Shown piece after piece: positions 1-32,000 of a stretch of 32,000 bases of DNA. The position numbers and the translations under genes were made by a program. The notes under the pieces were generated by a model that saw nothing but the letters and a program-made list of their open reading frames with translations, searched no databases and was not told the DNA's origin. Origin of the DNA: an uncultured Candidatus Saccharimonas sp. (lineage in GTDB: Bacteria; Patescibacteriota; Saccharimonadia; Saccharimonadales; Saccharimonadaceae); NCBI GenBank assembly GCA_963528875.1, contig CAURWT010000002.1:90001-122000 (forward strand). The letters are read 5' to 3'. Positions within the stretch are counted from its first letter, which is position 1; each line of letters starts with the position of its first letter.

Positions 1-2
1 TC

Positions 3-710
3 TTGCGTTCGCCACGAATTGCACTAATGCTTGTTGGGCATAGCAATATTCGAAAACGCGATTTTACGCTAGATATTGGCGCTGGAAGCGGTGTTTTTAC
101 TTTTGCCCTTAGCAAGAAATCTGCTCAAGTTTTGGCAATTGAATTTGACCGCGAAACTTTCAAAAAACTCCAAAATAACACTAAAAATTTAGAGAATATT
201 GAAGTTTTATGCGCAGATTTTTTGCGCTTCAACCTTTCGAAATTACCAAAAAATTATAAAGTTTGCGCAAATATTCCTTTTCACTTGAGTTCACCAATTA
301 TCCAAAAGCTTACAAATGCTCAAAATTCACCAAAAAGCATTTATTTAATTTTACAAAAACAATTCGCCCGCAAACTAATTGTGAGTGATAAAAATTTTAC
401 TTCCGCACTTGGTGTAAAAATATTTCCGTTTTTCGAAAGTAAAATTAAAAAACCTCTTCAAAAATCTGATTTTACGCCTCCACCGGCTGTTGAAACGGTA
501 TTTTTCGAAATGAAACGGCGAGAAACTCCGCTAATTTCGAAGGAAGAACAGCCAATTTTTAATGATTTTATTAAAAAAATGTTTGCTGTGCCAGATTTTT
601 ACAAAAAAAATTGCCAACCAAAATTTAAAACTAAAAAACCAAGCGAATTAAAGGGTGAAGAGTGGTTGGAGATATGGAAGTTTTGGCAAAATTCTGATAA
701 AATAGAATAA
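3..710 (+). CDS. rRNA adenine N6-dimethyltransferase family protein (KsgA/Erm-like paralog); 5' end lies outside the window
   Basis: SAM-binding motif LDIGAGSG, catalytic-type motif ANIPFHLSSPII and a FTPPP motif, all typical of the KsgA/Erm family. The frame is open to the window edge, so the M at position 3 is a track artefact. A better RsmA candidate is at 7398-8294. Confidence 0.8.
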   Translation: MRSPRIALMLVGHSNIRKRDFTLDIGAGSGVFTFALSKKSAQVLAIEFDRETFKKLQNNTKNLENIEVLCADFLRFNLSKLPKNYKVCANIPFHLSSPIIQKLTNAQNSPKSIYLILQKQFARKLIVSDKNFTSALGVKIFPFFESKIKKPLQKSDFTPPPAVETVFFEMKRRETPLISKEEQPIFNDFIKKMFAVPDFYKKNCQPKFKTKKPSELKGEEWLEIWKFWQNSDKIE

Positions 711-712
711 TT

Positions 713-2032
713 ATGGCACGGAAAATTAAGTTCGAAATAGCTAAATTTAATAAAATTACGCCTGGCGGGCAAGCCTTAGGCACGCTTGAAAATGGCAAAA
801 AAATCTTTGCTTGGGGAGTTTTACCAAATGAAACCGCAAAAATTCAAATTACAAAAAGTAAATCGAGTTTTGTAGAGGGTTTTGCGGTTGAAATTTTCGA
901 AAGTTCGCCCGAGAGAATTGAGCAAAAAGATAAGGAGAGTTTTCTTTCAACCAGCCCATGGCAGATTTTTAACTTTGATTTCGAACAAAAAACCAAACAA
1001 GAACTAATTTTTGAAAGTTTTCGCCAAGAAAAAATTGAACTCAAAAACCAAGAAGATTTTTATTCTGATGGTAAAATTTTTGAATATCGCAATAAAGTGG
1101 AGTTTTCATTTTGGTGGGAAAAATCTGGAGAAAATGAAAATGATGGCGAGCTAAGTTTAGCATTTTTTAAGCGTGGAGGAAAGGGAAAAATACCAGTAAA
1201 AGGTACGAGTTTAGCGAAGCCAGAAATCAATCAAGCAGGCCAAAAAGTGCTTGCAATTTTACGAGATAGAAAAACTGCAAGTCGAGATTTGAAGACTTTA
1301 TTAATTCGCGCAAACCAAAAAGGTGAAATTTCAGCCCAACTTTATGTAAAAGATGAAAAGTTTGAGCCATTTTCGAAAAAAGAAATAACTAGCCTTGGAT
1401 TTAAAAATTTTGAGATTATTTTTTCAAACCCAAAATCGCCAGCCAGTGTGATAACTAAAAAGATTCAAAGCCAAAACCAAGAGAATCTGCAAGATTCAGT
1501 TCTTGGCGTGAATTTTAATTATGCAACTGAGAGCTTTTTTCAGATAAATCTACCAGTTTATGAACAGGCTCTGCGCGACATGAAAAAATTCATCGATATT
1601 TCAAAGCCAACAGTTGATTTATACTCCGGTGTAGGATCGATTGGTTTAACGATTGGTGCGGGTGATCTAACTTTGGTTGAAATCAACGAGCCAGCAGTTG
1701 AAGAAATGCGAAGAAATATTACAAAGCTTGGGCGAGAAAAAACCGCAAAAGCTATTTTATCACCAAGCGAAAAAGCTTTAGACTTCATTAAAAAAGGTGC
1801 AAATTTAATTGTTGACCCACCGCGAGCCGGAATGAACCGTGAAGTTTGCGAAAAGATTCTTGAGATAGAGCCAGAAAAGGTGATTTATTTGAGTTGCAAT
1901 CCAACAACGCAAGCACGTGATGCGGCAATTTTAAGTAAAAAATATGAGATAATTTACACTCGTGGCTATAACTTCTTCCCACGAACACCGCATATTGAAA
2001 ACTTAATTATTTTGGAACTTAAAAATCAATAA
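713..2032 (+). CDS. 23S rRNA (uracil-C5)-methyltransferase, RlmD/RumA/RlmCD family (TRAM-like N-terminus plus SAM methyltransferase)
   Basis: Motifs DLYSGVGSIGL (SAM binding), VDPPRAGM and the nucleophile motif YLSCNPTTQARD. There are no cysteines upstream of these motifs, so there is no Fe-S cluster; this resembles Gram-positive RlmCD rather than E. coli RumA. Confidence 0.85.
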   Translation: MARKIKFEIAKFNKITPGGQALGTLENGKKIFAWGVLPNETAKIQITKSKSSFVEGFAVEIFESSPERIEQKDKESFLSTSPWQIFNFDFEQKTKQELIFESFRQEKIELKNQEDFYSDGKIFEYRNKVEFSFWWEKSGENENDGELSLAFFKRGGKGKIPVKGTSLAKPEINQAGQKVLAILRDRKTASRDLKTLLIRANQKGEISAQLYVKDEKFEPFSKKEITSLGFKNFEIIFSNPKSPASVITKKIQSQNQENLQDSVLGVNFNYATESFFQINLPVYEQALRDMKKFIDISKPTVDLYSGVGSIGLTIGAGDLTLVEINEPAVEEMRRNITKLGREKTAKAILSPSEKALDFIKKGANLIVDPPRAGMNREVCEKILEIEPEKVIYLSCNPTTQARDAAILSKKYEIIYTRGYNFFPRTPHIENLIILELKNQ

Positions 2033-2089
2033 AATATTTGAAAATATTGATTTTTTATCTTGCTTATGGTTTAATAATATCATACAGAT

Positions 2090-2281
2090 AAATAACAACA
2101 ATAATCGTTCATTAGAAAGGTGGATTTTCAGTATGAACTCAATTAATAAAAATAATAAAAAAGGTTTCACAATTATTGAAGTTGTGCTTGTGCTTGCCAT
2201 TGCCGGACTTATCTTCTTGATGGTATTCCTAGCACTACCTGCTCTACAACGAAGCCAACGAGATACGCAACGAAAGAATGA
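2090..2281. repeat. Left arm of a perfect 192-bp inverted repeat (5' UTR, RBS and codons 1-50 of pilin A)
   Basis: My base-by-base comparison shows 2090-2281 is the exact reverse complement of 3186-3377. A further shared 15-mer, tgcttatggtttaat, lies upstream at 2061-2075 and 3405-3419, separated from the arms by diverged spacers of different length. Confidence 0.9.
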
Positions 2282-2657
2282 CCTAAGTAGAATATTGGCA
2301 GCGGTAAATGAGTATAGAGCAGCCAATAAAGGAAAACTGCCATCTAATCAAGGAGAAGCTACTTTAGGAGATTTCCCGAAGAAAGATAAAGGCGCAACAG
2401 GATTTATAAAAAATTATTTATTCAAAGATGGTGAGGAGATGAAGGATCCAAGCGGGCGGAACTATGCAGTATTCGACAGAACTCCACACAAACTAGAATA
2501 TAATGACTATTCAGAAACTATAGATATTGAATGGTCGGCAAATGGAGTATGTGACCCATCGCAACCAGATGGAGTGAGAAGAGAAGAAGGAAACAAAGGC
2601 AAAGTAGCACTTCGAATAGTTCTAGAAGCTGGTGGATTCTACTGCGTAAATAACTAG
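2133..2657 (+). CDS. Type IV pilin / pseudopilin (prepilin with N-terminal methylation motif), variant A
   Basis: Class III signal MNSINKNNKKG|FTIIEVVLVLAIAGLIFL (G/F cleavage site, Glu at +5) followed by a hydrophobic alpha1-N helix. A C-terminal Cys pair (GVCDPS...FYCVNN) is consistent with a D-region disulfide loop. SD aaaggtgg lies upstream. Confidence 0.88.
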   Translation: MNSINKNNKKGFTIIEVVLVLAIAGLIFLMVFLALPALQRSQRDTQRKNDLSRILAAVNEYRAANKGKLPSNQGEATLGDFPKKDKGATGFIKNYLFKDGEEMKDPSGRNYAVFDRTPHKLEYNDYSETIDIEWSANGVCDPSQPDGVRREEGNKGKVALRIVLEAGGFYCVNN

Positions 2658-2676
2658 ATATAATCTTAATAAAATA

Positions 2677-2708
2677 AAAAACAGCTTTTCGTTAAGGAAG
2701 CTGTTTTT
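2677..2708. terminator. Bidirectional-looking intrinsic terminator hairpin downstream of pilin A
   Basis: Stem aaaaacagctt (2677-2687) pairs with aagctgttttt (2698-2708) around a 10-nt loop. An A-run precedes it and a T-run follows. Confidence 0.6.
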
Positions 2709-2770
2709 ATTGTGGCACAAAATGTGTCTTTAGTATCCGGTAATTCTAAAATAAACTCATTATCAAAGCC

Positions 2771-2800
2771 AATAGAATAGAATAGAATAGAATAGAATAG
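2771..2800. repeat. Pentanucleotide simple sequence repeat (AATAG)x6
   Basis: Six perfect tandem copies read directly from the sequence. They lie in the non-coding centre between the two convergent pilin genes. Confidence 0.95.
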
Positions 2801-2863: not shown

Positions 2864-3334
2864 CTAACCTTCAACGCAGTTTGCAACGCCATTTTCAGTC
2901 TTAACAGAAACAGCAATTCCACTACCAGCTATGATAGCTCCGTCTGTGCCACATTTAGCTTGGTTAGAAACTTTCATCTCACCGAGTGTAGTTGGTGCAG
3001 CTGCTTCTCCAGTAGCAGTATTAACTGTGTATTTAGAGTTTGTTGAAGGATCATTAAATGTTGTTGTATCATTCGTTGTGATATATTTACTAATGAAGTC
3101 GCTATTTAGACCACCTCCATCCCAAGGTAATTTTCCTCGGTTGTTTGAAGTATAGTCAGTCACTGCTGCGCGCAATCGTGAAGCATCATTCTTTCGTTGC
3201 GTATCTCGTTGGCTTCGTTGTAGAGCAGGTAGTGCTAGGAATACCATCAAGAAGATAAGTCCGGCAATGGCAAGCACAAGCACAACTTCAATAATTGTGA
3301 AACCTTTTTTATTATTTTTATTAATTGAGTTCAT
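2864..3334 (-). CDS. Type IV pilin / pseudopilin, variant B
   Basis: The first 50 residues match pilin A exactly (MNSINKNNKKGFTIIEV...QRDTQRKND). After that the sequence is only loosely similar (ASRLRAAVTDYTSNNRGKLP versus LSRILAAVNEYRAANKGKLP). A C-terminal Cys pair is present (AKCGTDG...ANCVEG). I chose the start at 3334, not the track start at 3433, because the RBS and leader are then identical to pilin A. Confidence 0.88.
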   Translation of the reverse strand: MNSINKNNKKGFTIIEVVLVLAIAGLIFLMVFLALPALQRSQRDTQRKNDASRLRAAVTDYTSNNRGKLPWDGGGLNSDFISKYITTNDTTTFNDPSTNSKYTVNTATGEAAAPTTLGEMKVSNQAKCGTDGAIIAGSGIAVSVKTENGVANCVEG

Positions 3335-3377
3335 ACTGAAAATCCACCTTTCTAATGAACGATTATTGTTGTTATTT
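3186..3377. repeat. Right arm of the perfect 192-bp inverted repeat (5' UTR, RBS and codons 1-50 of pilin B)
   Basis: Exact reverse complement of 2090-2281. Confidence 0.9.
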
Positions 3378-3474
3378 TTGTTTACGGTCTGTCCGTATGA
3401 AACCATTAAACCATAAGCATAATCATTTTGCAAGCACTTTTTTTTAGGATTTTTTAGTTTTCCACAATTTTAAT

Positions 3475-3963: not shown

Positions 3964-3993
3964 AAAAATATTTTAGCACATTTTCGAAAAAAA

Positions 3994-4022: not shown

Positions 4023-4028
4023 CGAAAA

Positions 4029-6213: not shown

Positions 6214-7407
6214 ATGCGAGTTTTACAACCAATTTATTTTTATAAAAAACAGATCACAATTGCGGGATTTATCTCGCTTGGATTTTTACTTTTATTAAAC
6301 ATTTTTGCAATTGCTGGGCGAAATTCCGCCAAAGCTAGCGGTGAAGGAAACAAAATTTTAACTGTTTTCGAAAATGGCCAAAGATTCTCTTTTAAAACTA
6401 ATGCAAAAACAGTTCGAGAAGCATTAAATGCCCAAAAAATTAGTTTTTCGAAAGAGGATACAGTTGAGCCAAGCCTTGATGGCGAGCTAACAGGCACAGA
6501 ATATAGCGTAAATATTTATCGTGCAAAACCAGTAATTATTGAAGACGGCGATTCGAAAATAAAAGTAATGACAGCCGCTCAAACTCCGCGACAGATTGTT
6601 CAAAAATCTGGAATTAAAATTCATAATGAAGATAAAGTTGCCTTCGAACAATCTGGTAGTATTCTTGAAGATGGAACAACAAACTCATTAAAAATTACAC
6701 GAGCAAAAGAGATTTTGGTTGAACTTTTTGGTAAAACCGAAAGTTTTCGAACACAAAGCAAAACCGTAGAAGATTTCTTGAAAGAAAAGAATATATCGCT
6801 CACAAAAGATGATGGAATTTCAATTGATAAAAAAACCATAATTTCGAACGGTTTGAGTTTTCGAATTTGGCGAAACGGTAAGCAAACAATTACAACTGAA
6901 GAAGAAATTTCTTTCTCAACTGAAATAATTAAAGATGCGAATAAAGATTCTAGCTATAAAGAAATAAAAGAAGCTGGGGAAAAAGGCTCGAAAAGCGTAA
7001 CTTATGAAATTGAAATGCAAAATGGTAAAGAAGTTTCACGCAAAAAAATTAACGAGACAGAAATTAAAGCTGCTAAAAAACAAGTTGAGATTGTTGGTAC
7101 AAAAGTTAACCTACCAGCTGGCTCGCACAGCGATTGGTTGAGTGCTGCAGGAATTTCTTCAAGCGACCACGGAATTGCAAATGCAATTATTGGTCAAGAA
7201 TCTGGCTGGCGAGTTAACGCAACAAACAGATCGAGTGGAGCTTATGGTATTCCGCAGGCTTTACCTGGTTCTAAAATGGCTTCAGCTGGAGCTGACTGGC
7301 AAACAAACCCAATCACGCAGCTTAAGTGGATGAATTCTTATGTACTTGGTCGCTATGGAAGCTGGCAAAACGCTTATGCCCATAAAAAAGCAAAGGGTTG
7401 GTATTAG
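6214..7407 (+). CDS. Secreted or membrane-anchored cell-wall protein with YabE/RpfB-like architecture: N-terminal TM, DUF348-like repeats, G5 domain, C-terminal lysozyme/transglycosylase-like domain
   Basis: TM segment ITIAGFISLGFLLLLNIFAIA; repeated segments of the type KTVREALNAQKISFSKEDTVEPSLD; a G5-like block (...KEAGEKGSKSVTYEIEMQNGKEV...VEIVGTK). The C-terminus GQESGWRVNATNRSSGAYGIPQALP...RYGSWQNAYAHKKAKGWY resembles Gram-positive transglycosylase / aggregation-promoting-factor C-termini. I chose the start at 6214 to avoid overlap with pcrA. The order yabE-like, ksgA, metS, tatD echoes the Bacillus neighbourhood. Confidence 0.7.
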   Translation: MRVLQPIYFYKKQITIAGFISLGFLLLLNIFAIAGRNSAKASGEGNKILTVFENGQRFSFKTNAKTVREALNAQKISFSKEDTVEPSLDGELTGTEYSVNIYRAKPVIIEDGDSKIKVMTAAQTPRQIVQKSGIKIHNEDKVAFEQSGSILEDGTTNSLKITRAKEILVELFGKTESFRTQSKTVEDFLKEKNISLTKDDGISIDKKTIISNGLSFRIWRNGKQTITTEEEISFSTEIIKDANKDSSYKEIKEAGEKGSKSVTYEIEMQNGKEVSRKKINETEIKAAKKQVEIVGTKVNLPAGSHSDWLSAAGISSSDHGIANAIIGQESGWRVNATNRSSGAYGIPQALPGSKMASAGADWQTNPITQLKWMNSYVLGRYGSWQNAYAHKKAKGWY

Positions 7408-8294
7408 TGGTAAATTTGAAATTTAATCAAAAATCTGGTAAAAAGTTTTCGAAAAAATCCAAAAATAGCGAAAATTTAAACTTAAAAAATAATAAATCAC
7501 TTGGTCAGCACTGGTTGCGAGACAGGGTTGTTCTAGATGGAATTGCAGAAGAAGCTGAAATCAAAAATGGTGATTTCGTACTTGAGATCGGTCCAGGGCT
7601 TGGAACTTTAACTTCTTCACTTTTAAAATTCGCAGGTAAAGATGGTGAAGTTCTCTCAATCGAGTTTGATGAAAATTTGGCAAAAAAACTACCAGCGCAA
7701 TTCCCAGGGAAAAATTTAACCGTAAAAAATACGGATTTTTTGGATTTTGATCTTTCGAAATTACCAAAAAATTATAAAGTTGCTGCGAACGTACCGTATT
7801 ATATTACTTCAAAAATTGTTGAAAAATTACTCACTAGCGAGAATAAGCCAAGTATTGCCGCACTTTTAGTGCAAAAAGAAGTTGCTGAGAGGATTTGCGC
7901 AAAATCTGGCGATTTAAGTGTTTTATCAATTGCATCACAGATTTATGCCGATTGCAAACTTGGCCAATTTGTACCACGAGAGCTATTTACGCCGCCACCA
8001 AAAGTTGATTCGCAAGTAGTAATTCTAAAAATTCTAGAAAAGAATAAGCTTGAGTGTTTTAATGAACAAAATAATGCTAAAATATCAGAAAAACAATTTT
8101 TCCGTATAGTTAAAGCTGGTTTTACCGCTCGACGAAAAAAAATCCTAAAAGCATTAAGTGCAAATTTGGCATTGAGCAAAGAACAAACAATTGAGATCCT
8201 CACACAAGCCAAGGTTTCACCAGATGCGCGCGCACAAGAATTAACTATCGAAAACTGGCTTGAAATTACTCGATACTATTTTGATTCTAAATAA
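7398..8294 (+). CDS. rsmA: 16S rRNA (adenine1518/1519-N6)-dimethyltransferase RsmA/KsgA
   Basis: SLGQHWL, LEIGPGLGTLT (SAM binding), ANVPYYITS and FTPPPKVDS motifs; the full-length family architecture is present. The exact start is uncertain (TTG 7398 or GTG 7407). Confidence 0.9.
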   Translation: MVLVVNLKFNQKSGKKFSKKSKNSENLNLKNNKSLGQHWLRDRVVLDGIAEEAEIKNGDFVLEIGPGLGTLTSSLLKFAGKDGEVLSIEFDENLAKKLPAQFPGKNLTVKNTDFLDFDLSKLPKNYKVAANVPYYITSKIVEKLLTSENKPSIAALLVQKEVAERICAKSGDLSVLSIASQIYADCKLGQFVPRELFTPPPKVDSQVVILKILEKNKLECFNEQNNAKISEKQFFRIVKAGFTARRKKILKALSANLALSKEQTIEILTQAKVSPDARAQELTIENWLEITRYYFDSK

Positions 8295-8350
8295 ATAATT
8301 TTTATTTATAAGCTTAACAATAATTCCAACTTTCTCTTTTTCGAAAAATA

Positions 8351-9889: not shown

Positions 9890-9937
9890 CCAGAACCTCG
9901 GCTTTAATGCTGAGGTTTCAACTTTCGAAAGGACAAA

Positions 9938-11753: not shown

Positions 11754-11800
11754 TATAAAATCTATCGAATTTTCGAAATATATTTTGGAGGTGGAGAAAT

Positions 11801-12646: not shown

Positions 12647-12727
12647 ACCATAGTGAGCTAAATGCTCGCTTTTTTATTGATTTTTGAAAGTGATTATGCT
12701 AAACTATTTACATCAAGGAAGTGGGCA

Positions 12728-14682: not shown

Positions 14683-15651
14683 ATGACAAAGATTTTATTA
14701 GTAGAAGATGATAAAAGTTTGCGCGAGATTTATGGCGTTCGATTATTGGCGGAAGGATATGATATTGTTTCGGCTGGTGATGGAGAAGAAGCGCTCGCAA
14801 TGGCGATTAAAGAACGCCCAAACCTAATTGTAAGCGATGTAATGATGCCAAAGATTTCTGGCTTTGACATGCTTGATATTTTGCGCTCAACAACTGAAAC
14901 CCGCGGTATTAAAGTTATTATGATGACAGCTCTCTCAAGTGAAGAGCAGCGTCGTCGCGGTGAAGCACTTGGCGCCGACCGCTATCTAGTAAAATCTCAA
15001 GTGGGAATTGAAGATGTTGTGCGAACAGTTCACGAGGTTCTTGAAGATGGCGACTTAACAGTAGAGCAGCGAACTGCACAAAAACAAGCGCCAATATCTA
15101 TGCCAGGGGAAGAAGCTCCAGCAATGCAATCGCAAGAAATTAAAGCACCAGTTGAATTATATTCTACCGCGCAAACGCAGGTAGCTCAAGCGCCAATTCA
15201 AAATTTTGAAAAACCAGCACCAGCTCCGGTTCGGCCAGTTCAGCCCATCCAATCTCCAGAACGTGCTACAGCACCGAGTTTAGCTCAATTCGAAAGAGAA
15301 CAGCTAACATCTTTTTCTACAAACCAACCGATTCAGCCAGTTTCTCAACATGTACAATTTGAACAGCCCCATGCTAAAGTAGCGCCAGTTCAAAATTTTA
15401 GAACACCAGAATCACCAACAATTGAAGCTCCGGCTCATCCAATTAGTGATTTTGTAAATCAGCCTCAAGCAGCTGTTCAAAATAATCAGCCAGCCACACC
15501 GACTGTCTCTGGCGAACGAGTAGTTCAACCAATCAAAAATAGTCGAAGTGATGAAGAAATATTATCTTTTCAAATTAACGATATCCTAAAAGGTGGAGCA
15601 GGCGAAAATCCCTTAAATAACAATTCTCAACCTCCTTTTGGAGCTCAATAA
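14683..15651 (+). CDS. Response regulator with receiver domain only, followed by a roughly 200-aa P/Q/A-rich tail (no recognisable output domain)
   Basis: Receiver signature: ILLVEDD, phospho-acceptor context LIVSDVMMPKISGF, MMTALS, and DRYLVKS. The remainder is low complexity with recurring Q-N-F type motifs (APIQNFEKP, APVQNFRTP). SD aggag lies upstream. Confidence 0.85.
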   Translation: MTKILLVEDDKSLREIYGVRLLAEGYDIVSAGDGEEALAMAIKERPNLIVSDVMMPKISGFDMLDILRSTTETRGIKVIMMTALSSEEQRRRGEALGADRYLVKSQVGIEDVVRTVHEVLEDGDLTVEQRTAQKQAPISMPGEEAPAMQSQEIKAPVELYSTAQTQVAQAPIQNFEKPAPAPVRPVQPIQSPERATAPSLAQFEREQLTSFSTNQPIQPVSQHVQFEQPHAKVAPVQNFRTPESPTIEAPAHPISDFVNQPQAAVQNNQPATPTVSGERVVQPIKNSRSDEEILSFQINDILKGGAGENPLNNNSQPPFGAQ

Positions 15652-16383: not shown

Positions 16384-16613
16384 AATCTGCTACATTTTTT
16401 CAATGTTAATCAGTAAATTCATTATATAACCAGCTGATATTTCGACACTTTCGTCAAGCATAATTTGACAAAAAATATCCAAAATCTTTTCGAAATATTC
16501 TTTAATTTCAATCGGAATTTTATCTTCATTGCCAGAGTTAGACTCGAACTTACAAGCTCGAGCAAGTTTCTCAATATTGATTTTTATTTCGAAAAATTAT
16601 ACAATAATTGAAT

Positions 16614-20274: not shown

Positions 20275-21564
20275 TTGAAAATCATACAAAAGTCACTGGC
20301 TTATGTTACACGAAAGAAAAAAAGAACTACGATTGTTTTTTTAATTCTTACCGCGGTGCTTTCAAGCCTATATGCATGCTTGAACGTAGTTAATTCTAGC
20401 AGTAATCTGGAAAATTCGCTATATAAAGCATCGAATTCATCTTTCTCGATAGTTAAGAAAGATTCTCAGGGCTACTTTAGCTACAAAGATGTTAAGAATA
20501 TTCGAAATATTAAAGAAATCAAAGAATCATTGCTTGAATATGAAGGCTTGGCCAAACCTAAAAATGCTAAAGCTATATCCGCTAATCAGCAAGTTCAGCG
20601 AGATGATCTTGGTGAAGACTCAAAAAATACAGTTGCAATTTACAGCACCAACAGTACCGCTAAAAATACGCTCTTTAGCAGTGGTGTATTCAAGCTCAAA
20701 CAAGGTCGTCATCTAGAACAAAACGATAGAGGAAAAGCCTTAATCCACGAAGCTTTCGCTCAAAAAAATAATCTAAAAATTGGTGATAAGATTGAACTAG
20801 ATTTAATAGATACTAGCGGCAAAAAAACTGAAACTCAAAAAACTAAATTCGAAATCATAGGAATTTTTAGCGGTAAAAAACAAGAGAAATACACTGGTTT
20901 ATCTTCTGATTTTAGCGAAAATATGATATTTTCAGATTTCGAAACAGCCATGCAAGCGCTTAATCTGCCAGAAAAGGAAGGCCTTTTAAGCAAAATAACT
21001 CTATACACCGAAACAGCAGATCAGCTAGAAAAAGCCATCGCAAAAACTGAAAAGCTCAATATTGACTGGTATAAATATAAGATCGAGAAAAATAATGCCG
21101 CCTTTAAAGATACTTTAGGGTCAATAGCTGGAGTTAAAAATATTATCAATTTAATGACTTATTTGATAATACTTGGTGGAAGCGTAGTTCTTAGCTTAAT
21201 TCTGATACTTTGGTTGCGCGAGAGGATTTACGAGATAGGAATTTTGCTTTCAATTGGCACAAGCAAGCTTCAAATAGTATTGCAATTTATTATAGAGCTA
21301 GTTTTAATTTCAATCCCAACAACAATCAGCTCTTTCATTCTTGGAAATTTAGTTTTCAGTTTAATCACAAAAGGGCTCAGTGAAGCCGAAGAAACCTCAT
21401 CTGTAGCATCAAGTTTTACAAACAATATTTTTGGATTAGACAGCTTAGCAGTTTTTATGCAAAGCTATAGCATATTAATCACAATAATTATTCTGTCTGT
21501 AATTATCGCATCAACGATGATTTTAGTTAAAAAACCAAAGGAAATTTTATCAAAAATTAGTTAG
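20275..21564 (+). CDS. ABC transporter permease, FtsX/MacB-type (4-TM type with a large extracytoplasmic loop)
   Basis: N-terminal TM (TTIVFLILTAVLSSLYA), a roughly 250-aa hydrophilic loop, then three C-terminal TMs (FtsX-domain-like). TTG start with the strong SD aaggag 5 nt upstream. It is a paralog of 22227-23603. Confidence 0.8.
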   Translation: MKIIQKSLAYVTRKKKRTTIVFLILTAVLSSLYACLNVVNSSSNLENSLYKASNSSFSIVKKDSQGYFSYKDVKNIRNIKEIKESLLEYEGLAKPKNAKAISANQQVQRDDLGEDSKNTVAIYSTNSTAKNTLFSSGVFKLKQGRHLEQNDRGKALIHEAFAQKNNLKIGDKIELDLIDTSGKKTETQKTKFEIIGIFSGKKQEKYTGLSSDFSENMIFSDFETAMQALNLPEKEGLLSKITLYTETADQLEKAIAKTEKLNIDWYKYKIEKNNAAFKDTLGSIAGVKNIINLMTYLIILGGSVVLSLILILWLRERIYEIGILLSIGTSKLQIVLQFIIELVLISIPTTISSFILGNLVFSLITKGLSEAEETSSVASSFTNNIFGLDSLAVFMQSYSILITIIILSVIIASTMILVKKPKEILSKIS

Positions 21565-21573
21565 GAGAATATT

Positions 21574-22212
21574 ATGAAAATATTAGAGATTAAAAATTTA
21601 ACTTATAGCTATAAAGACTCGAAAGAGAAAGTTCTAGCAAACGTTAATGAAAGTTTTGAAGAGGGAAAGTTCTATGCAATTATTGGCAAATCTGGCGCTG
21701 GAAAATCCACATTGCTCTCATTGCTAGCTGGCCTAGATGAACCAGATAGCGGAAAAATACTTTTCAATGGAGAGAATATCCAAGAAACCGGCTACACAAA
21801 TCACCGCAAAAACAACATCTCGCTAGTCTTTCAAAACTATAATCTCATTGATTACCTTTCACCGCTGGAAAATATCCGCCTAGTGAATAACCAAGCTCAG
21901 CAAGATATTTTGCTAGAACTTGGCCTTAGCGAACACCAAGTTAAGCGAAATGTAATGAAACTTTCAGGCGGTCAGCAGCAAAGGGTAGCGATCGCCCGCG
22001 CACTAGTTTCAAGCGCACCTGTTATTTTAGCGGATGAGCCGACTGGAAATCTGGATGAAAACACAGCTAGCGAAATTATCGAAATTCTCAAAAAACTAGC
22101 CAAAGAGAGGAACAAATGTGTAATTGTTGTAACTCACAGCAAAGAAGTTGCGCGCGCCGCCGATATCGTATTCGAACTTAAAAATAAAAAATTAATCAAT
22201 AAACGTGGGTAG
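21574..22212 (+). CDS. ABC transporter ATP-binding protein (MacB/LolD-like)
   Basis: Walker A GKSGAGKST, signature LSGGQQQRVAIARAL, Walker B ILADEPTGNLD and H-loop VTHS. Confidence 0.93.
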   Translation: MKILEIKNLTYSYKDSKEKVLANVNESFEEGKFYAIIGKSGAGKSTLLSLLAGLDEPDSGKILFNGENIQETGYTNHRKNNISLVFQNYNLIDYLSPLENIRLVNNQAQQDILLELGLSEHQVKRNVMKLSGGQQQRVAIARALVSSAPVILADEPTGNLDENTASEIIEILKKLAKERNKCVIVVTHSKEVARAADIVFELKNKKLINKRG

Positions 22213-22226
22213 AAAGGAGTAAAATA

Positions 22227-23603
22227 ATGTTAAAAAATGCTTTTGCGTATGTAACGAGAAAAGGCTTAAAATCACTAGTGATTTTGCTAGTTATCTTGAC
22301 AATGTCGGCCTTAAGTTTAATTAGTTTATCTATCAAAGAAGCCACCGACAAAGCTTCAACTAAAACCTTTAGTAATATCACAAATAGCTTTTCAATGGAA
22401 ATAAACCGCCGAGTTAATCCTGGCACGCCAAGAGGTGGAGGAAACGTTAAAGGCCAAGATATTAAAAAAATTGCAAATTCTGAAAATATAGAAAGCTATG
22501 TAAAGAGAATTAATAGCGTTGCTGATTTAGACGGCTACGACATCATCGAGACAGCCGAAACCACAGCTAACCAATCACCTGAGCGAGCTAAAAATTTTAA
22601 AAGAGCCGTCATGATTACTGGCGTTAATGATTCTTCTAAAGAAACTAAATTCGTTTCAGGCGCATATAAATTAGTTGAAGGCAAGCATTTAGCTGCTCAA
22701 GACAAAAATAAGGTTTTAATTCACAAAGATTTAGCTAAAAAGAACAATCTAAAAGTTAGCGATAAAATTAAGCTAAAATCAAATTTATTTGACGCAGATA
22801 ACGAAAAAGGCGCTAACGAAACGGTAGAAGTTGAAATAAAAGGCCTTTTTGACGGGCACAACAAAGGTGGCGTTACTGCCGCACAAGAACTTTACGAAAA
22901 CACTTTAGTTACAGATATTCACACCGCGGCAAAGGTTTACGGAAACACTGAAGACACAGCAACCTACCAAGATGCAACTTTTTCCGTTAAAGGAAATAAA
23001 AATCTTGACCAAGTTATAAAAGATCTTGGAAAATTAGATATAAATTGGCAAGAATACAGCTTAATTAAAAGCTCTTCAAACTATCCTGCACTTCAGCAAT
23101 CAATTTCAGGAGTTTATTCTATAGCCAACCAGTTATTTGTCGGATCATTGTTATTCGCCGGAATTATAGTTTCACTACTATTGTTCTTGTGGATCAATGC
23201 TCGCAAAAAAGAAATTGCAGTATTACTTTCATTAGGAATTTCAAAAGGCCAAATTTTAGCTCAGTTTGCGGTAGAATTAGCTTTCGTAACGATCCCAGCT
23301 TTCATCGGTTCATATTTCTTGGCTAGTTATGCCGGAAAACACATTGGAAACAATATTTTGCAAAGCGTTACCGGAAATATCGCTAAGCAAATCGCCAAAC
23401 AGTCAGCTTCAACAGGCCTAGGTGGTGGCGCCGAGGTAGATGGATTCAATAAAACTCTCAGCAGTCTTGATATGGCAATCAATCCAAATATGCTAGTCTG
23501 GGTAATTATATTCATGACTATCGTGCTTGCAATTTCGCTATACATCGCTTCATCTGGCATTCTAAAGAAAAACCCTAAAGATTTACTATCAGATGCAGAA
23601 TAA
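22227..23603 (+). CDS. ABC transporter permease, FtsX/MacB-type (second permease of the module)
   Basis: Same topology as 20275-21564, with a similar N-terminus (MLKNAFAYVTRKGLKSLVILLVIL versus MKIIQKSLAYVTRKKKRTTIVFLIL). SD aaggag lies upstream. Confidence 0.8.
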   Translation: MLKNAFAYVTRKGLKSLVILLVILTMSALSLISLSIKEATDKASTKTFSNITNSFSMEINRRVNPGTPRGGGNVKGQDIKKIANSENIESYVKRINSVADLDGYDIIETAETTANQSPERAKNFKRAVMITGVNDSSKETKFVSGAYKLVEGKHLAAQDKNKVLIHKDLAKKNNLKVSDKIKLKSNLFDADNEKGANETVEVEIKGLFDGHNKGGVTAAQELYENTLVTDIHTAAKVYGNTEDTATYQDATFSVKGNKNLDQVIKDLGKLDINWQEYSLIKSSSNYPALQQSISGVYSIANQLFVGSLLFAGIIVSLLLFLWINARKKEIAVLLSLGISKGQILAQFAVELAFVTIPAFIGSYFLASYAGKHIGNNILQSVTGNIAKQIAKQSASTGLGGGAEVDGFNKTLSSLDMAINPNMLVWVIIFMTIVLAISLYIASSGILKKNPKDLLSDAE

Positions 23604-23610
23604 AAAAATA

Positions 23611-23640
23611 ATATCAGCTCCATAATGGCGCTGATATTTT
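23611..23640 (+). terminator. Intrinsic terminator after the ABC genes
   Basis: Stem atatcagc (23611-23618) pairs with gctgatat (23630-23637), followed by tttctttg. Confidence 0.6.
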
Positions 23641-23642
23641 CT

Positions 23643-23671
23643 TTGAAGTCAATACAGTAAAATGATATAAT
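23643..23671 (+). promoter_or_regulatory. Sigma70-type promoter with extended -10 for the OmpR-type two-component operon
   Basis: TTGAAG (23643-23648), 17-nt spacer, TGaTATAAT (23663-23671). Eight nt separate it from ATG 23680, with no SD. Confidence 0.55.
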
Positions 23672-23679
23672 ACTAATAG

Positions 23680-24342
23680 ATGACAATGAAAATACTTATT
23701 ACTGAAGACGACGCAACAATACGAGAAGGAATTTGCGCATATTTATCTGAATTTGGCTACGAAATAATCGAGGCGCGCGATGGGCGAGAGGCTTTATCTA
23801 AATTCGGATCAAATAAAATCGACCTAGTGATTTTAGATATTCAAATTCCATTCATAAATGGCCTAGACGTCCTTAGAAAAATCAGAGAGAAAAGTGATCT
23901 GCCAGTTCTCATTCTAACTGCTTTTAGCGATGAAGAATTCAAAATCACCGCCTTTTCGAACCTGGCGGATGGCTATATTGAAAAACCGTTTTCGCTCCCA
24001 GTTTTAAAAGCTCGAATTGACGCGCTAATTACAAAAAATTATGAAAAATTCGAAGTTTTCAAATATAAAGAGCTAGAAATTAATTTTAGTAATTTTTCTG
24101 CAAAAATAAACAACGCTGAAGCGGAAATCAGCGCAAAAGAAATTGAGGTTTTAAAATACTTATTATTCAACGAAGGCAGAGCTTTGACCAGAAGGCAGAT
24201 TTTAGAAAATGTCTGGAAGGAAAACGAAAACATACCATTCGACCGAGTGATTGACGTTTATATAAAAGATCTACGCAAAAAATTCGGGCTTGATTGCATT
24301 AAAACCATCCGCAATGTCGGCTACAAATTGGAGAGAAAATGA
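23680..24342 (+). CDS. OmpR/PhoB-family response regulator (receiver plus winged-helix DNA-binding domain)
   Basis: ILITEDD, LVILDIQIP, LTAFSD, and the C-terminal winged-helix signature IRNVGYKLE. The start could also be ATG 23686. Confidence 0.9.
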   Translation: MTMKILITEDDATIREGICAYLSEFGYEIIEARDGREALSKFGSNKIDLVILDIQIPFINGLDVLRKIREKSDLPVLILTAFSDEEFKITAFSNLADGYIEKPFSLPVLKARIDALITKNYEKFEVFKYKELEINFSNFSAKINNAEAEISAKEIEVLKYLLFNEGRALTRRQILENVWKENENIPFDRVIDVYIKDLRKKFGLDCIKTIRNVGYKLERK

Positions 24343-25661
24343 GAAATTTGAAAATTTTCCCTAAAATGTTTTTATATACGTTTTCTATGTTAAGTATTTT
24401 AGCGATTTTAATTCATGCGTTGATTTATTTTATTTTTCCAAAAGTTTATCTCGAAACTCGCAAGCAAGAAATTGCTCAAAAAGCAGACCAAATTACTAAG
24501 AATATCCACGGCAAAAATATCGAAAGCATCAAGCAGATACTTGAGCTATATTCTAAAAGTAGCAAAGTTAAAGCTTTTGTTAAAGATAGCAACCATTTAA
24601 ACGAAATTAAAATTGATAACCAGATTGAGGCGGATCTAACCAGCAACAATAACTCTTTAGTCATCGAAGATAGAGAAGTACAGACTGACTCTAACAAAAA
24701 AATATTGGTTAAATTCATCTCAACAACAGATATGAATAAAGACGCAAAAGAGCTAACTTTTCAATTTTTACCAATTTCAATTCTGTTTTCTTTCTTTTTT
24801 TCGTTTATCGTTTCATTAATTTATGCCAAAATCATTACCAAAAATATAAATGAAATCAAAACCACAACTGCTAAAATGATGAAACTTAACCGAAATGCTA
24901 AACTGGAAGTTAACTCCACAAATGAAGTCGGTGCTCTGAAAAGCCAAATAAATGATTTATATTTAACACTCCTAAAATCGATTGACAGCCTAGAGATCAA
25001 AAATCAAGAGATCACTAAGCTCGAAAAACTAAAAAGCGAGTTTTTTAGAGGCGCCTCCCACGAGCTAAAAACCCCTTTAGCGAGCCTTAAAATAATTCTT
25101 GAAAATATGAAATATGGCATTGGCAAATATAAAAACAAAGAGAAATCTATTGAAGATTGTCTTGATATTGTTGATCAACTGGCTCAAAATATCGCTCAAA
25201 TATTATCAACCTCTTCATTCGAAAACCTAAAAAATGATGAGAAGTTTATTAATATCAATAAAATACTACAAAAGGTTCTAGATAACTATAAATTATTAGC
25301 CGAACAAAAAAATATCTCAATAGATAATCAGCTGAGCCAAGAAGAAATTTATATTGGTGAAACAGCGCTAGAAATTATTCTCTCAAATTTAGTGAGCAAT
25401 GCTGTAAAGCATTCCGACCAAAACGGTCAAATAAATATTGGCGTCAAGAATAACTGGTTTTATATTGAAAATTCAAATCAGAATATCAAAGACAACAAAA
25501 ATACTAAAATTTTCGAAACAAATTTTGACCTAAATAAAGAAAAAGGTAGCGGATTCGGACTTTACATAGTTAAAAATATTTTAACAAATTATAAAATTAA
25601 ATATAAAATAGAAAAGAGCAAAATTGGTGTAAAATTTTTAATTGATTTGTCGAAAAAATAG
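24339..25661 (+). CDS. Membrane sensor histidine kinase (two TMs, small extracytoplasmic loop)
   Basis: TM1 FLYTFSMLSILAILIHALIYFIF and TM2 LPISILFSFFFSFIVSLIYAKII; H-box FFRGASHELKTPLASL; N-box LSNLVSNAVKHS; G2 GSGFGLYIVKNI. The ATGA overlap with the regulator gene indicates translational coupling. Confidence 0.88.
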   Translation: MRNLKIFPKMFLYTFSMLSILAILIHALIYFIFPKVYLETRKQEIAQKADQITKNIHGKNIESIKQILELYSKSSKVKAFVKDSNHLNEIKIDNQIEADLTSNNNSLVIEDREVQTDSNKKILVKFISTTDMNKDAKELTFQFLPISILFSFFFSFIVSLIYAKIITKNINEIKTTTAKMMKLNRNAKLEVNSTNEVGALKSQINDLYLTLLKSIDSLEIKNQEITKLEKLKSEFFRGASHELKTPLASLKIILENMKYGIGKYKNKEKSIEDCLDIVDQLAQNIAQILSTSSFENLKNDEKFININKILQKVLDNYKLLAEQKNISIDNQLSQEEIYIGETALEIILSNLVSNAVKHSDQNGQINIGVKNNWFYIENSNQNIKDNKNTKIFETNFDLNKEKGSGFGLYIVKNILTNYKIKYKIEKSKIGVKFLIDLSKK

Positions 25662-29141: not shown

Positions 29142-29215
29142 ACATGTATTATATTTTTGTTCGCTTTTTGTTTTTTTGCGAGCTTGGGCTAACAGTTTAA
29201 GTTTCACATAGTCTG

Positions 29216-29449
29216 TTAGTCCTCGTTTAGAAAGTTATCGATTTTATCTGATTGTGAAATTGATTTAATAGCGTCCATAAGGCCAAATTTGTCTTTTTTA
29301 TCGACAAAATAATCAATTTCTAAACCATTTTTGAATCGAAGAGTAAGAATTGTAAAATAATTTCCAGATTTTTCAGATTTTCGAGTTCGAAGTGCTACAC
29401 GGGCAACTGTTGAAATGATATTGTCTTGATTTAAAATTTTTTCTTGCAT
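29216..29449 (-). CDS. Hypothetical small protein (77 aa)
   Basis: ORF preceded on the minus strand by SD aaggag and a tataat element. No family recognised. Confidence 0.5.
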   Translation of the reverse strand: MQEKILNQDNIISTVARVALRTRKSEKSGNYFTILTLRFKNGLEIDYFVDKKDKFGLMDAIKSISQSDKIDNFLNED

Positions 29450-29953
29450 AATTTATTTTTTCTCCTTGAAAATTATATTTTTTAAATTACAAAAACATAA
29501 TAGCATATGCAAAAAGGAAATACAAGAAGGGTCGCACAATATATCTTTTACGACATCATACGTAAAAACAACTCTTAAATATAAAAATTAACTTACTATT
29601 TATATTTATACTGTGTAGGATTTATTTTATATAAATTATTTTTGTGGAATATAATAAAATAACAGATCTGTATAAATTATAATCTAGTAAATTATCAACA
29701 AGGAAAGAGCGGGAATTACAAAAAAATATTTTCCTTATATAATTTAAAAATTCTTTAAGTTTAATTTCTCAAATATCCATCTTTTCTAATAGATAAAAAT
29801 AATTTTCTACACCCCTACCTTATTTATTTTTTGACAATTTGACTTTTTTATTTTTTAATATTATAATATATTTTTTATATTTCTCCCTACTCTTCTTGTT
29901 CTCAATTGTATTATAGAACAAAAAACGAACAAACCCCTTCTCCTTTTTTGTTT

Positions 29954-30829
29954 TTATTTATAATAACCTTTTCCTTCAATTCTTAGATCTATGTAATTTG
30001 GTGAAATTTTATGAGTTCTAAAATATTCAATAGCTTTTTTAAAGTTAATAATTTGCCCTTCTGCGGAATCGGCTGTCGACATCCTCGCAAAGTAACTTAT
30101 ACCTTCTACAGAAACTTCAACCTGTCGTAAACTAAGGGGCGGAATACGAATTTTCGAAACCTCTAGTCCTTGTTTGTTCGCAGCAGAAACTAGTTTTCCA
30201 ATAAAGCTAAAAAAGCTACTGCTTGCAACATTTTTACCGTTAGAAACTATAGCACCACTATCATCAATTATATTTAGTGACGGTTTTTCAAAATTATTAA
30301 CACTAAAAGATATACCTTCAGAATCTACAAAAAATTCTTTACTATCGACCAACCAAGAAGCAACAGGTTTTCGAAAATCAAGATAAATTTTATATGAGGT
30401 TAAACCATTAAATTTAATATCCGAAATAGATAACACCTCTGGATAATCTTTTTGAAGACTTTCAAGTAAAGCATTTTTATTTAAATTTGACAAAATCCGT
30501 TCACTCGGATTTATATTTAAATATTCTTCAACTGATTTTTCATATTTACTTAAATTTTGGCTTTTTGACTCATTTGAAACTACTGAAACCTTAGAAATAA
30601 ACTGAAATAAAAATATAGAAATTAAACTTATAAAAATAGCTAAAATTATGAAAAAAGCACCTAGCTTTCTTCGGCGAATAACTAATTTTTGATTTTCTAA
30701 ACGCTCAGAATGCTCTTTTTGATGCCGTGAAATTGTTTTTCCACGCCGAAAATCACCCTTCTCTTTTGAGCGTTCTTCTAGGATCTTTTCGCGCATTTCG
30801 CGTCGAGTTAAGTTTTTTTCTTCTTTCAT
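29954..30829 (-). CDS. ftsQ: Cell division protein FtsQ/DivIB-like (basic cytoplasmic N-terminus, single TM, POTRA-like region)
   Basis: Bitopic topology (TM LGAFFIILAIFISLISIFLFQFI) and a position immediately downstream of murG, as in dcw clusters. Sequence similarity itself is weak. Confidence 0.6.
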   Translation of the reverse strand: MKEEKNLTRREMREKILEERSKEKGDFRRGKTISRHQKEHSERLENQKLVIRRRKLGAFFIILAIFISLISIFLFQFISKVSVVSNESKSQNLSKYEKSVEEYLNINPSERILSNLNKNALLESLQKDYPEVLSISDIKFNGLTSYKIYLDFRKPVASWLVDSKEFFVDSEGISFSVNNFEKPSLNIIDDSGAIVSNGKNVASSSFFSFIGKLVSAANKQGLEVSKIRIPPLSLRQVEVSVEGISYFARMSTADSAEGQIINFKKAIEYFRTHKISPNYIDLRIEGKGYYK

Positions 30830-30862
30830 CTAACTATAATTATACCATAAGCTCAATATTTT

Positions 30863-32000
30863 TTATAGTTTCACAGCCTCAAAAATCATTTCTGCAACAT
30901 CTTTAGCAGCATTAGGCTTAGCAAACTTACCAAATTCTTTACCAAGTTTAAGCATCTCTTCTGGATTTTCTAAAGTTCTCAAAATTTCATCTGAAAGGAT
31001 TTCTGGATTTTTTTCAATTTCATCGTCTGAAACAATCTTAACAGCATTAGATTTTTGATAAACCTGCGCATTTTTTAATTGATGTCCACCTGTTAATCTT
31101 GCGTTTGGAACAAGAATTGTTGGCTTGTGAAGCGCGGCAAGTTCAAGGTTGGAAGTTGCACCAGCCCGAGCAACAACCAAATCTGCAGCAGCTAAAAACT
31201 TCCACATATCTTTTGATACAAAACTTAACAAGTAAAAATCCTTCGAAAACCCCTCAGTTTTTCTCTTAAGTTCACTAAATTGAGATACGCCAGAAATTAG
31301 AACAATTTGAGCGGATTTTGAAAGCTCCCTGCCCTTTGAAACTACCGCATTGTTAAGCCGAGTTGCACCAAGACCACCACCAGTAACTAAAACAAGAGGC
31401 TTACTTTTCGAAAACCCGAGCTCAACCTTAAAATTATCTTGTTCTTTTTTACTATATTTTTTAAAATTTTCAAGTACCGGAATTCCAACGTAATTTGAAA
31501 TTTCTTTTGGATAATTATAAAATTCGAGTGGTGCGCCTGTTGCAATCCTTTTAGCAAATTTTGAAATAATACGATTAGCTAAACCTGGGTGAGCATCAGA
31601 ATCATGTATCACAATTGGAATTCTCAAAATCCAAGCGCTTATTCCAACAGGAACACAAACAAACCCACCTTTACAGAAAATAACATCTGGTCGCCAAAAA
31701 ATTAGTTTGAAAAAAGACTGAAAAATACCAGCAATATTTCGAAAAATATCTATAAGATTGCCAAAAACAACACTTGGAATTGTAAGATGTTGCCAAAAAG
31801 TTAAGTGATTGTAGCGGCGAAATTTCCCACTTGAAATTTTCGAAATTTTAACTCTTTCACCAAAAGAATCAGTCATTATTTTTTTAGCCTGTGGTGCAAA
31901 TTTTTTATCACACCAAAAATGTAATTCTACTTTTGGATTTTTCTTTAAAATTTCCTTAAAAACTGCCACGATTGGAACTACGTGACCGCCCGACCCGCCG
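30863..32000 (-). CDS. murG: UDP-N-acetylglucosamine--N-acetylmuramyl-(pentapeptide) pyrophosphoryl-undecaprenol GlcNAc transferase MurG; N-terminus outside the window
   Basis: The frame stays open to the window edge and reads GGSGGHVVPIVAV (the MurG G-loop GGTGGH-type motif). Also present: TGGGLGATRLN and ARAGATSNLELAALHKPTILVP. The track M at 31969 is an internal GTG (Val). Confidence 0.9.
   Translation of the reverse strand, partial: GGSGGHVVPIVAVFKEILKKNPKVELHFWCDKKFAPQAKKIMTDSFGERVKISKISSGKFRRYNHLTFWQHLTIPSVVFGNLIDIFRNIAGIFQSFFKLIFWRPDVIFCKGGFVCVPVGISAWILRIPIVIHDSDAHPGLANRIISKFAKRIATGAPLEFYNYPKEISNYVGIPVLENFKKYSKKEQDNFKVELGFSKSKPLVLVTGGGLGATRLNNAVVSKGRELSKSAQIVLISGVSQFSELKRKTEGFSKDFYLLSFVSKDMWKFLAAADLVVARAGATSNLELAALHKPTILVPNARLTGGHQLKNAQVYQKSNAVKIVSDDEIEKNPEILSDEILRTLENPEEMLKLGKEFGKFAKPNAAKDVAEMIFEAVKL

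Follow-up and report, generated by a model that had tools for sequence, protein, structure and literature searches.

The question raised by this locus is why a six-base palindrome, TTCGAA, is so common in it. The locus is a 32,000-nt stretch from an uncultured Candidatus Saccharimonas sp. (contig CAURWT010000002.1, positions 90,001 to 122,000), which we call the window. It has a G+C content of 35.2% and contains 29 genes, with spacers that make up 2.9 kb and have a G+C content of 26%. Gene starts were taken from a mechanical list of open reading frames (ORFs). The original prediction for this DNA had counted about 90 copies where about 10 were expected at roughly one-third G+C, and both figures were close: there are 94 copies, and a mononucleotide model predicts 10.7. 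We conclude that the palindrome, which in its full form is the octamer TTTCGAAA, is a lineage-specific highly iterated palindrome (HIP), a DNA signature like the HIPs of cyanobacteria, and that it is not a gene, a repeat element or a codon artefact.

Markov models of orders 1, 2, 3 and 4 predict 26, 39, 50 and 77 copies in the window, and TTCGAA is the 8th commonest of all hexamers despite the 65% A+T sequence. Counted on two strands it occurs 188 times, five times as often as the next word of the form NNCGNN (35). CpG is generally over-represented in the window, with an observed over expected ratio (O/E) of 1.28, and 7.4% of all the CpGs fall inside TTCGAA. The full octamer accounts for 44 of the copies, which makes it the top palindromic octamer of the window (the runner-up, AAAATTTT, has 25), and its two-strand count of 88 compares with 2.3 expected from mononucleotides and 10.6 from a first-order Markov model.

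Genes hold 84 of the copies, and these are spread over the three phases (24/23/37). Shuffling synonymous codons gave 27.5±4.7 copies in the genes (z=12) and permuting the codons gave 19.9±4.5. The strictest null was a dicodon shuffle in which the proteins, the codon usage and all dinucleotide counts are kept exactly; this gave 46.1±4.6 copies with a maximum of 59 in 500 runs, still well short of 84 (z=8.2). Codon choice changes with context in every frame: Phe is written TTC 60% of the time before GAA and 21% elsewhere, Ser is written TCG 42.5% of the time between T and AA and 10.7% elsewhere, and Arg is written CGA 74% of the time between TT and A and 28.6% elsewhere. Positions in the window genes where synonymous codons could form the word do so in 84 of 222 cases (38%). 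The spacers contain 10 copies where their own dinucleotides predict 1.85±1.35, a 5-fold excess. Since the choice of codon follows the context in each of the three frames, and the spacers too are enriched, the excess has a cause at the level of DNA and does not come from codon or dipeptide bias. The original prediction had made the same inference, and it holds up: the codon- and dinucleotide-preserving shuffles fall short of the observed count, and amino-acid pairs in one frame cannot account for the excess. The nine positions it had quoted all carry TTCGAA, its frame calls at 49, 236 and 731 are correct, and the six sites it had placed between genes do lie between ORFs. One example of each phase and the ten spacer copies are as follows; the spacer copies have no strand.

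49..54, plus strand: phase 1, xTT CGA Axx (I-R-K), in an Erm/KsgA-like methyltransferase gene
236..241, plus strand: phase 2, xxT TCG AAx (L-S-K)
731..736, plus strand: phase 0, TTC GAA (F-E)
3982..3989: intergenic TTTCGAAA separating two divergent genes
8339..8346: intergenic TTTCGAAA (TTTTTCGAAAAA), with metG 23 nt downstream
9923..9930: intergenic TTTCGAAA adjoining the AGGA ribosome-binding site of the TatD gene, retained in all clade A/B/C genomes (see below)
11771..11778: intergenic TTTCGAAA
14652..14659: intergenic TTTCGAAA (TTTTTTCGAAAAA)
16488..16495: intergenic TTTCGAAA
16587..16594: intergenic TTTCGAAA
17949..17956: intergenic TTTCGAAA immediately 3' of a stop codon
19483..19490: intergenic TTTCGAAA adjoining the AGGA ribosome-binding site of pth
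29386..29391: the sole intergenic copy with neither T/A flank (gagTTCGAAgtg)

The copy at 29386 is inside a 0.8-kb stretch with no ORF of at least 100 aa, and a 77-aa gene is called there on the source contig, so this copy may be coding. We rejected a promoter or terminator role for the spacer copies because they lie at varying, inconsistent distances from -10-like boxes and start codons. A tRNA T-loop or other structured RNA was also rejected as the source of TTCGAA, as there were no tRNA or Rfam matches in the window.

The flanks show what the unit is. Among the 94 copies there is a T at -1 in 64% and an A at +1 in 71%, and we found no information beyond one nucleotide on either side; therefore this is not a repeat element. 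The synonymous-shuffle O/E is graded, with 4.7 for TTTCGAAA, 2.8 for copies with one flank and 1.6 (not significant) for the bare hexamer, while all one-off variants inside the hexamer have an O/E of 1.1 or less. In the spacers, 9 of the 10 copies are full octamers. From the graded excess, the spacer octamers and the lack of enrichment of inner variants, the unit is an octameric palindrome with a strict six-base core. The copies had been described as mostly TTTCGAAA, which is too strong for the full octamer (47%), although 88% of the genic copies do have at least one of the two flanks. Spacing between sites is near exponential, with a coefficient of variation of 0.95 in the window. The TTCGAA starts, in order along the window and without strand, are:

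part 1: 49, 236, 432, 504, 536, 731, 896, 980, 1372, 2611, 3703, 3983, 4466, 4830, 4922, 5303, 5327, 6111, 6182, 6367, 6447, 6552, 6643, 6746, 6843, 6860, 7448, 7754
part 2: 8340, 8822, 9389, 9924, 10195, 10338, 10349, 10426, 11010, 11325, 11772, 12363, 12467, 12775, 13147, 13580, 14039, 14653, 15289
part 3: 16046, 16325, 16489, 16588, 16636, 16810, 16871, 16976, 17086, 17917, 17950, 18291, 18425, 18746, 18879, 18990, 19484, 19808, 19953
part 4: 20501, 20848, 20938, 22171, 23955, 24049, 25218, 25512, 26362, 26671, 26818, 26913, 27134, 27283, 27374, 27474, 27617, 27662
part 5: 28082, 28682, 28700, 29386, 30153, 30370, 31242, 31407, 31738, 31839

The enrichment continues beyond the window, both along the chromosome and in close relatives. 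For the source genome we covered about 60 kb (the window and about 30 kb of flanks) out of about 0.7 Mb, taking the flanks from scaffold_8 of European Nucleotide Archive entry ERZ28636975, which matched the window exactly at all six 40-nt probes that we checked. On the same contig, the two 10-kb stretches that adjoin the window contain 34 and 35 copies. If the density of about 3 per kb holds throughout a genome of about 0.67-0.69 Mb, there would be some 2,000 TTCGAA in total. All 20 of the 20 close relatives have between 2.6 and 4.1 copies per kb, and across lineages diverged by up to 26% the density is 2.6-4.6 per kb.

To place the trait we used a ladder of 80 syntenic loci from relatives, with about 20 kb of sequence each, a neighbour-joining tree of four proteins, and the synonymous-shuffle O/E as the index for each locus. 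The MetRS gene groups the window with human-associated uncultured Saccharibacteria of the Nanogingivalaceae (TM7 group G6; 'Candidatus Saccharimonas sp.' metagenome-assembled genomes (MAGs), UMGS1907). Clades A, B and C are the window's group and two sister groups, at 82-95% nucleotide identity, and the L numbers are our labels for loci. The index has the following values.

clades A, B and C: 2.4-3.1
L018: 3.2
L023: 2.4
L019-21: 1.7-2.05
L025: 1.7
L022, Ca. Nanogingivalis gingivitcus, the next branch out: 0.24 (1 copy in 21.5 kb)
L027: 0.46
distant Saccharibacteria sampled: 0.4-1.4

The excess is thus limited to one clade of the Nanogingivalaceae (TM7-G6), and the comparison shows that the trait arose once, at the base of that clade, after the split from Ca. 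Nanogingivalis gingivitcus. The distant Saccharibacteria (L029-L080), when pooled, have a first-order Markov O/E of 0.64, which is ordinary mild palindrome avoidance. The statement in the original prediction that such palindromes are usually avoided therefore holds for these distant genomes and for the sister species (0.2).

There are two other compositional differences within the family. The CpG O/E goes from 0.73 in Ca. N. gingivitcus through 1.2-1.4 in the window's clade to 1.6-1.8 in L018, L023 and L025. The non-palindromic pair AAAATC/GATTTT is over-represented family-wide relative to a second-order Markov model, with 152 in the window where 94 are expected and z values of 11.5 in L023, 9.5 in L025 and 8.4 in L018. 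It is also seen in L012 and others and is well conserved, so it is a second compositional signal, spread wider than TTCGAA.

Individual sites come and go within the clade. At 95, 93, 90 and 82% identity the retention of TTCGAA is 0.94, 0.88, 0.82 and 0.60, which makes it the best-conserved word tested within the clade; the figures are 0.84, 0.75, 0.64 and 0.39 for TTTGAA/TTCAAA and 0.69, 0.63, 0.49 and 0.29 for other CpG hexamers. No excess in conservation of TTCGAA was found in the non-enriched lineages. Among close relatives, 44 of 63 differences are exchanges between TTCGAA and TTTGAA or TTCAAA. Across clades A, B and C there are 23 sites in all three, 20 missing from one and 30 in one only, whereas pure decay predicts about 6 sites in a single clade, and most of the clade-specific sites are absent from outgroups where these can be aligned. 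Private sites have a density of 1.8 per kb in L018, 1.3 in L023, 1.15 in L025 and 0.4-0.8 in L012/L014. In L019-21 the density is at background level (0.1-0.3 per kb), and 7 of 8 sites there are common to the window. The site at 49 is also in L019/L021 and is therefore ancestral. Since most sublineages carry sites of their own, new sites arose after the lineages split. These comparisons show that sites were first generated at the base of the clade, that most sublineages went on generating them after the split, and that this has stopped in L019-21, where relics are kept.

We looked for a mutational signature in nine close genomes, on their terminal branches. In the motif, synonymous CpG transitions affected 12 of 149 CpGs (8.1%), and elsewhere 94 of 1119 (8.4%). 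In the other direction, 2 of 75 TTTGAA/TTCAAA proto-sites became sites, compared with 188 of 5867 (3.2%) for other TpG to CpG changes; the power is low and a 3-fold rise is only weakly excluded. TTTGAA/TTCAAA is also not depleted (O/E 1.03 by synonymous shuffle, 0.87 by first-order Markov model). The CpG of the motif is neither hypermutable nor protected, and the conversion of near-sites is, at this low power, not raised. Equal CpG mutation rates inside and outside the motif argue against a simple mutational cause and against one based on very-short-patch (VSP) repair.

The reading we prefer, at a probability of roughly 0.4, is that the palindrome is read by a lineage-specific factor, with a transmission bias in transformation or recombination. 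A protein specific to the lineage would recognise the palindrome. This reader would most likely be a TTCGAA-specific DNA methyltransferase, either an orphan or part of a restriction-modification (R-M) system, or else the palindrome would serve as a self-DNA mark. Alleles that bear a site would then gain an advantage in transmission, most plausibly during natural transformation and recombination, and sites would accumulate through biased fixation rather than biased mutation, with a turnover mainly by ordinary CpG transitions between TTCGAA and TTTGAA/TTCAAA. For methylated HIP1 in cyanobacteria, an advantage of this kind has now been proposed. If the modification were on N6 of adenine, this would also account for a CpG that is not hypermutable.

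TTCGAA is the type II site of BstBI/AsuII. We favour a methyltransferase as the reader because the core has this specificity, because TTCGAA is methylated in nature and because the trait is on in some sister lineages and off in others, as mobile methyltransferase genes are. The methylated motif in question was found in an environmental MAG (bioRxiv 10.64898/2026.06.24.734251). A bias in transformation or recombination seems the most economical link since Saccharibacteria are naturally competent (PMC10633639), methylated HIP1 boosts the transformation of a cyanobacterium more than 100-fold (bioRxiv 2024.09.10.611283), and HIP1 has been proposed as an uptake or recombination signal.

The balance of gains and losses gives weak evidence for a fixation bias, whether by selection or by transmission drive, and is evidence against a purely mutational cause. 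At the tips, losses to gains are 20:4 in one count and 14:7 in another, and on deeper stems they are about balanced; losses concentrated at the tips with balance deeper down are what would be expected if losses are weakly counter-selected.

Several observations weigh against this reading of a factor with a transmission bias. The contrast between tips and deeper stems comes from small numbers, with a Fisher p anywhere between about 0.003 and 0.12 according to the way of counting events, and the relatives are MAG consensus sequences, which mix polymorphism with divergence. Parsimony over the whole clade gives 106 losses and 57 gains, although such counts are biased where turnover is high. For clade A, the sites may be a relic in slow decay. 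On terminal branches TTCGAA is lost at 9.0%, within the 7-11% of AACGAA, TTCGTT and ATCGAA (on internal branches the figures are 5.3% and 8-12%), so the raw excess in conservation largely vanishes against the most similar control words. Synonymous losses of sites are no slower than those of other CpGs, contrary to strong selection on each site. The Pfam lists, which cover the window plus 10 kb on its left and about 20 kb on its right, contain no DNA methyltransferase, restriction enzyme or Vsr. Finally, the evidence for competence comes from other Saccharibacteria (PMC10633639) and not from this uncultured lineage.

A more specific version, which we regard as doubtful, is that TTTCGAAA is a self-DNA tag read in natural transformation, either at uptake or afterwards through methylation-dependent protection or recombination. 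If this were true, Patescibacteria would have their first signal of the uptake type. It would also be the first such signal that is a palindrome, and HIP1 would have an independent counterpart that is A+T-rich. The tag could distinguish conspecific from foreign DNA in these epibiotic bacteria; if the host genome is G+C-rich, the octamer would be hundreds of times rarer there (a rough estimate for a hypothetical host).

The most serious competitor, still on the unlikely side, is that the process is neutral. A TTCGAA methyltransferase together with biased repair, either Vsr-like VSP repair or a ratchet of methyl-directed mismatch repair as in Elhai's model for HIP, would turn near-sites into sites that have no function. 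Such a mechanism has already been put forward for HIP1 (PMC4390886; discussed in PMC5861425), it would suit the predominance of exchanges with TTTGAA/TTCAAA (44 of 63), and a mobile methyltransferase gene would let the trait come and go between sister lineages as it does. However, that predominance is largely predicted by synonymous third-position changes, the near-sites are not depleted, T to C change at proto-sites is not raised (2 of 75, at low power), C to T change at sites is the same as elsewhere, and no dcm, vsr or mutH-like gene was seen in the 60 kb or so. We find it less probable that the octamer is the site of an abundant nucleoid-associated or chromosome-organising protein, for example one binding as a dimer on TTTC|GAAA, with a density selected for compaction or domains as Xu et al. 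suggested for HIP1 (PMC5861425). Such a protein would fit the palindromic site, the preference for the full octamer where the DNA is unconstrained (9 of 10 copies in spacers), the even scatter and the partial excess in conservation. An 8-bp site with a strict 6-bp core, however, is short and sharp for such a protein and is typical of type II enzymes. We identified no candidate protein, and the loss of individual sites at synonymous positions is not slowed.

It is more improbable again that the sites are now a relic everywhere, amplified in a common ancestor, decaying neutrally and with no present cause. This is demonstrably the state of L019-21, losses outnumber gains on terminal branches (20:4) and by overall parsimony (106:57), and recent rates inside the motif look neutral. 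But a relic does not easily account for private sites that are absent from all outgroups (1.8 per kb in L018, 1.3 per kb in L023), for 30 sites specific to one of clades A, B and C where about 6 are expected, or for the similar density in lineages up to 26% diverged. Under pure loss, the ancestor of the window lineage and L018 would have had to carry about 12 sites per kb, by our own capture-recapture estimate (32 x 33 / 10 sites in 8.7 kb). Chance, codon or dipeptide bias, a dispersed repeat element and an assembly artefact can practically be set aside. The CpG excess (O/E 1.28) and common runs of T and A do lift the simple expectations, but the count exceeds every shuffle by a z of 8-12, including the one that preserves proteins, codons and dinucleotides; all three frames and the spacers are affected, conservation stops at one nucleotide from the hexamer, and the trait is common to independent MAGs from different studies, often at identical positions. 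The original prediction had named four causes: plain mutational bias is disfavoured by these results, and the uptake or recognition, methylation and nucleoid-protein readings are left standing.

We searched for the responsible factor in the source genome and in the related loci. The window is ordinary core genome: UvrD, MetRS, TatD, EngA, Pth, SmpB, an ExoIII-family nuclease and MurG, along with two genes of the rRNA adenine dimethylase family, an RlmD-like methyltransferase, two type IV pilins, two-component systems and an ABC/FtsX cassette. The unannotated window proteins gave no DNA methyltransferase, restriction enzyme or Vsr when scanned with Pfam and PADLOC. One homologue search and one look-up further along the genome returned ordinary housekeeping genes. 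A regular-expression screen for methyltransferase motifs in all ORFs of L001-L091 found a single DNA methyltransferase, in L025 (11185-12977), where a C5-cytosine methyltransferase adjoins an R.HinP1I-family endonuclease, the sole R-M system seen in the related loci. The pair is just upstream of a fusion of a UvrD helicase and a PD-(D/E)XK nuclease, where synteny with the window breaks. We rejected this methyltransferase as the reader of the motif because, given its R.HinP1I-family partner, it is presumably GCGC-specific and so irrelevant here.

The gene at 3-710 (the full gene is L081 9258-9998) was also considered. It is a second Erm/KsgA-like gene with an NIPF motif, the true ksgA being at 7398-8294, and it matches mad2 (methylation-associated defence) in PADLOC at 3e-13, in the S-adenosylmethionine-binding region only. 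We rejected it because the match to rRNA adenine dimethylase is better (1e-36) and because the non-enriched L019 and L022 have the gene too. Among viral contigs, two protein-based scans found no phage relatives of the lineage, and a pattern scan for paired octamers gave chance matches among those listed, none at the host density over a long stretch.

One part of the window stands out in its site usage:

20275..25661, plus strand: cassette of an FtsX/ABC/FtsX transporter, a response regulator and a histidine kinase

In this cassette 8 of 36 reachable positions are realised (22%), compared with 76 of 186 (41%) elsewhere (Fisher p=0.04), and it may have been acquired more recently. Another two-component pair, a PAS histidine kinase (12662-14632) and the adjacent response regulator (14683-15651), has Gln/Pro/Asn-rich low-complexity C-terminal tails of about 200 aa.

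The two type IV pilin genes are convergent (2133-2657, plus strand; 2864-3433, minus strand) and share a 199-nt inverted repeat with 98% complementarity (2083-2281 and 3186-3384), whose arms cover the upstream region and the first 50 or so codons of each gene. The genes differ in their C-terminal parts, and the second varies among strains (180 vs 200 aa). Recombination between the arms would turn the 904-nt segment round and exchange the C-terminal parts of the two pilins, and the pair may therefore be a cassette for pilin variation. Just past the right end of the window there is a KwaB-family protein (a component of the Kiwa defence system) directly upstream of a Pif1-family helicase (L085 1-1919, L089 8894-11548); homologues of the helicase at 94-100% identity occur in many assemblies, and no KwaA was noted. 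At the edge of locus L020 (3-1709) is a large serine recombinase (Resolvase, Recombinase, zinc ribbon and DUF4368), which suggests an integrated element in that lineage.

We compared the motif with several known systems. Strand-oriented motifs such as Chi and KOPS/AIMS differ in that TTTCGAAA is its own reverse complement, so no orientation is possible. The BstBI/AsuII-type R-M site has the same core hexamer. Restriction sites are normally avoided in the host genome, whereas this one is enriched 3-9x here and avoided in the sister species (0.2x), and no R-M genes were found in about 60 kb. The signature of Dcm/Vsr very-short-patch repair in E. coli is an excess of CCWGG and a deficit of CTWGG. 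The likeness there is a methylatable palindrome that is over-represented and has its C to T variant as the main evolutionary partner, but the deficit of the T variant and the raised T to C change in context that this mechanism predicts were both tested and were not found here.

DNA uptake sequences (DUS in Neisseria, USS in Pasteurellaceae) share several features with the motif. They have a density on the order of 1 per kb (here 3 per kb), they are found in coding DNA whatever the frame, and their variants are lineage-specific. Natural competence and type IV pili are features of the phylum, with two pilin genes in the window, and an accumulation by transmission bias rather than mutation bias fits our data. 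However, the known DUS and USS are non-palindromic 9-12-mers, often in inverted pairs in terminators, and their one-off variants are enriched too, while here we have an 8-bp palindrome with a strict core and no extended asymmetric context, which fails the structural definition. On this comparison the motif may still work like a DUS or USS despite its structure.

For 30 years, the hyper-abundant palindromes of cyanobacteria have been puzzling. In the literature searched we found nothing that links TTCGAA or TTTCGAAA to Saccharibacteria, uptake sequences or over-representation, and nothing about uptake sequences in this phylum, and so this is a HIP-like palindrome outside the cyanobacteria with no earlier report found for its phylum. 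The sister lineages offer a contrast between those that generate sites (L018, A/B/C, L023), those that have stopped (L019-21) and one that avoids them (Ca. N. gingivitcus), and genes that co-vary among them could reveal the responsible factor, which is hard to do for HIP1. In practical terms, the motif is a sharp compositional marker by which these gut and oral TM7 genomes can be binned and DNA of recent acquisition recognised, and it is worth considering in the design of DNA for the transformation of Saccharibacteria.

The closest likeness is to the HIPs of cyanobacteria, HIP1 (GCGATCGC) as well as the alternate ones. There as here, the motif is an octameric palindrome that outnumbers every other palindromic 8-mer by far; both are spread through genes in all frames and through spacers, and both have a strict inner hexamer with the specificity of a type II methyltransferase or restriction enzyme (CGATCG in HIP1, TTCGAA here). 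Deviations are mostly at the first and last base in HIP1 (PMC4390886), and here the O/E falls to 2.8 when one outer base deviates and to 1.6 when both do. In both cases the motif is lineage-specific, with related lineages that lack it or have a replacement. HIP1 sites are conserved somewhat above controls, and the sites here may be so too: TTCGAA has the highest pairwise conservation of the words tested, but its loss per branch is near that of the most similar controls and its synonymous CpG rate equals that of controls. The differences are that cognate methyltransferases are known for HIP1 and none was found here in about 60 kb, that recent substitution rates in the motif look neutral here, that the octamer is 38x over base composition and about 8x over dinucleotides compared with 15-300x for HIP1, and that our motif has another, A+T-rich sequence and belongs to Patescibacteria/Saccharibacteria. 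A periodic distribution at the 10-90 kb scale is a further mark of HIPs, and the contiguous sequence covered here is 32 kb, or about 52 kb with flanks. TTTCGAAA is therefore HIP-like but is not HIP1 itself, and since it is independent of HIP1, differs from it in sequence and comes from a distant phylum, it shows that the phenomenon is not a cyanobacterial oddity.

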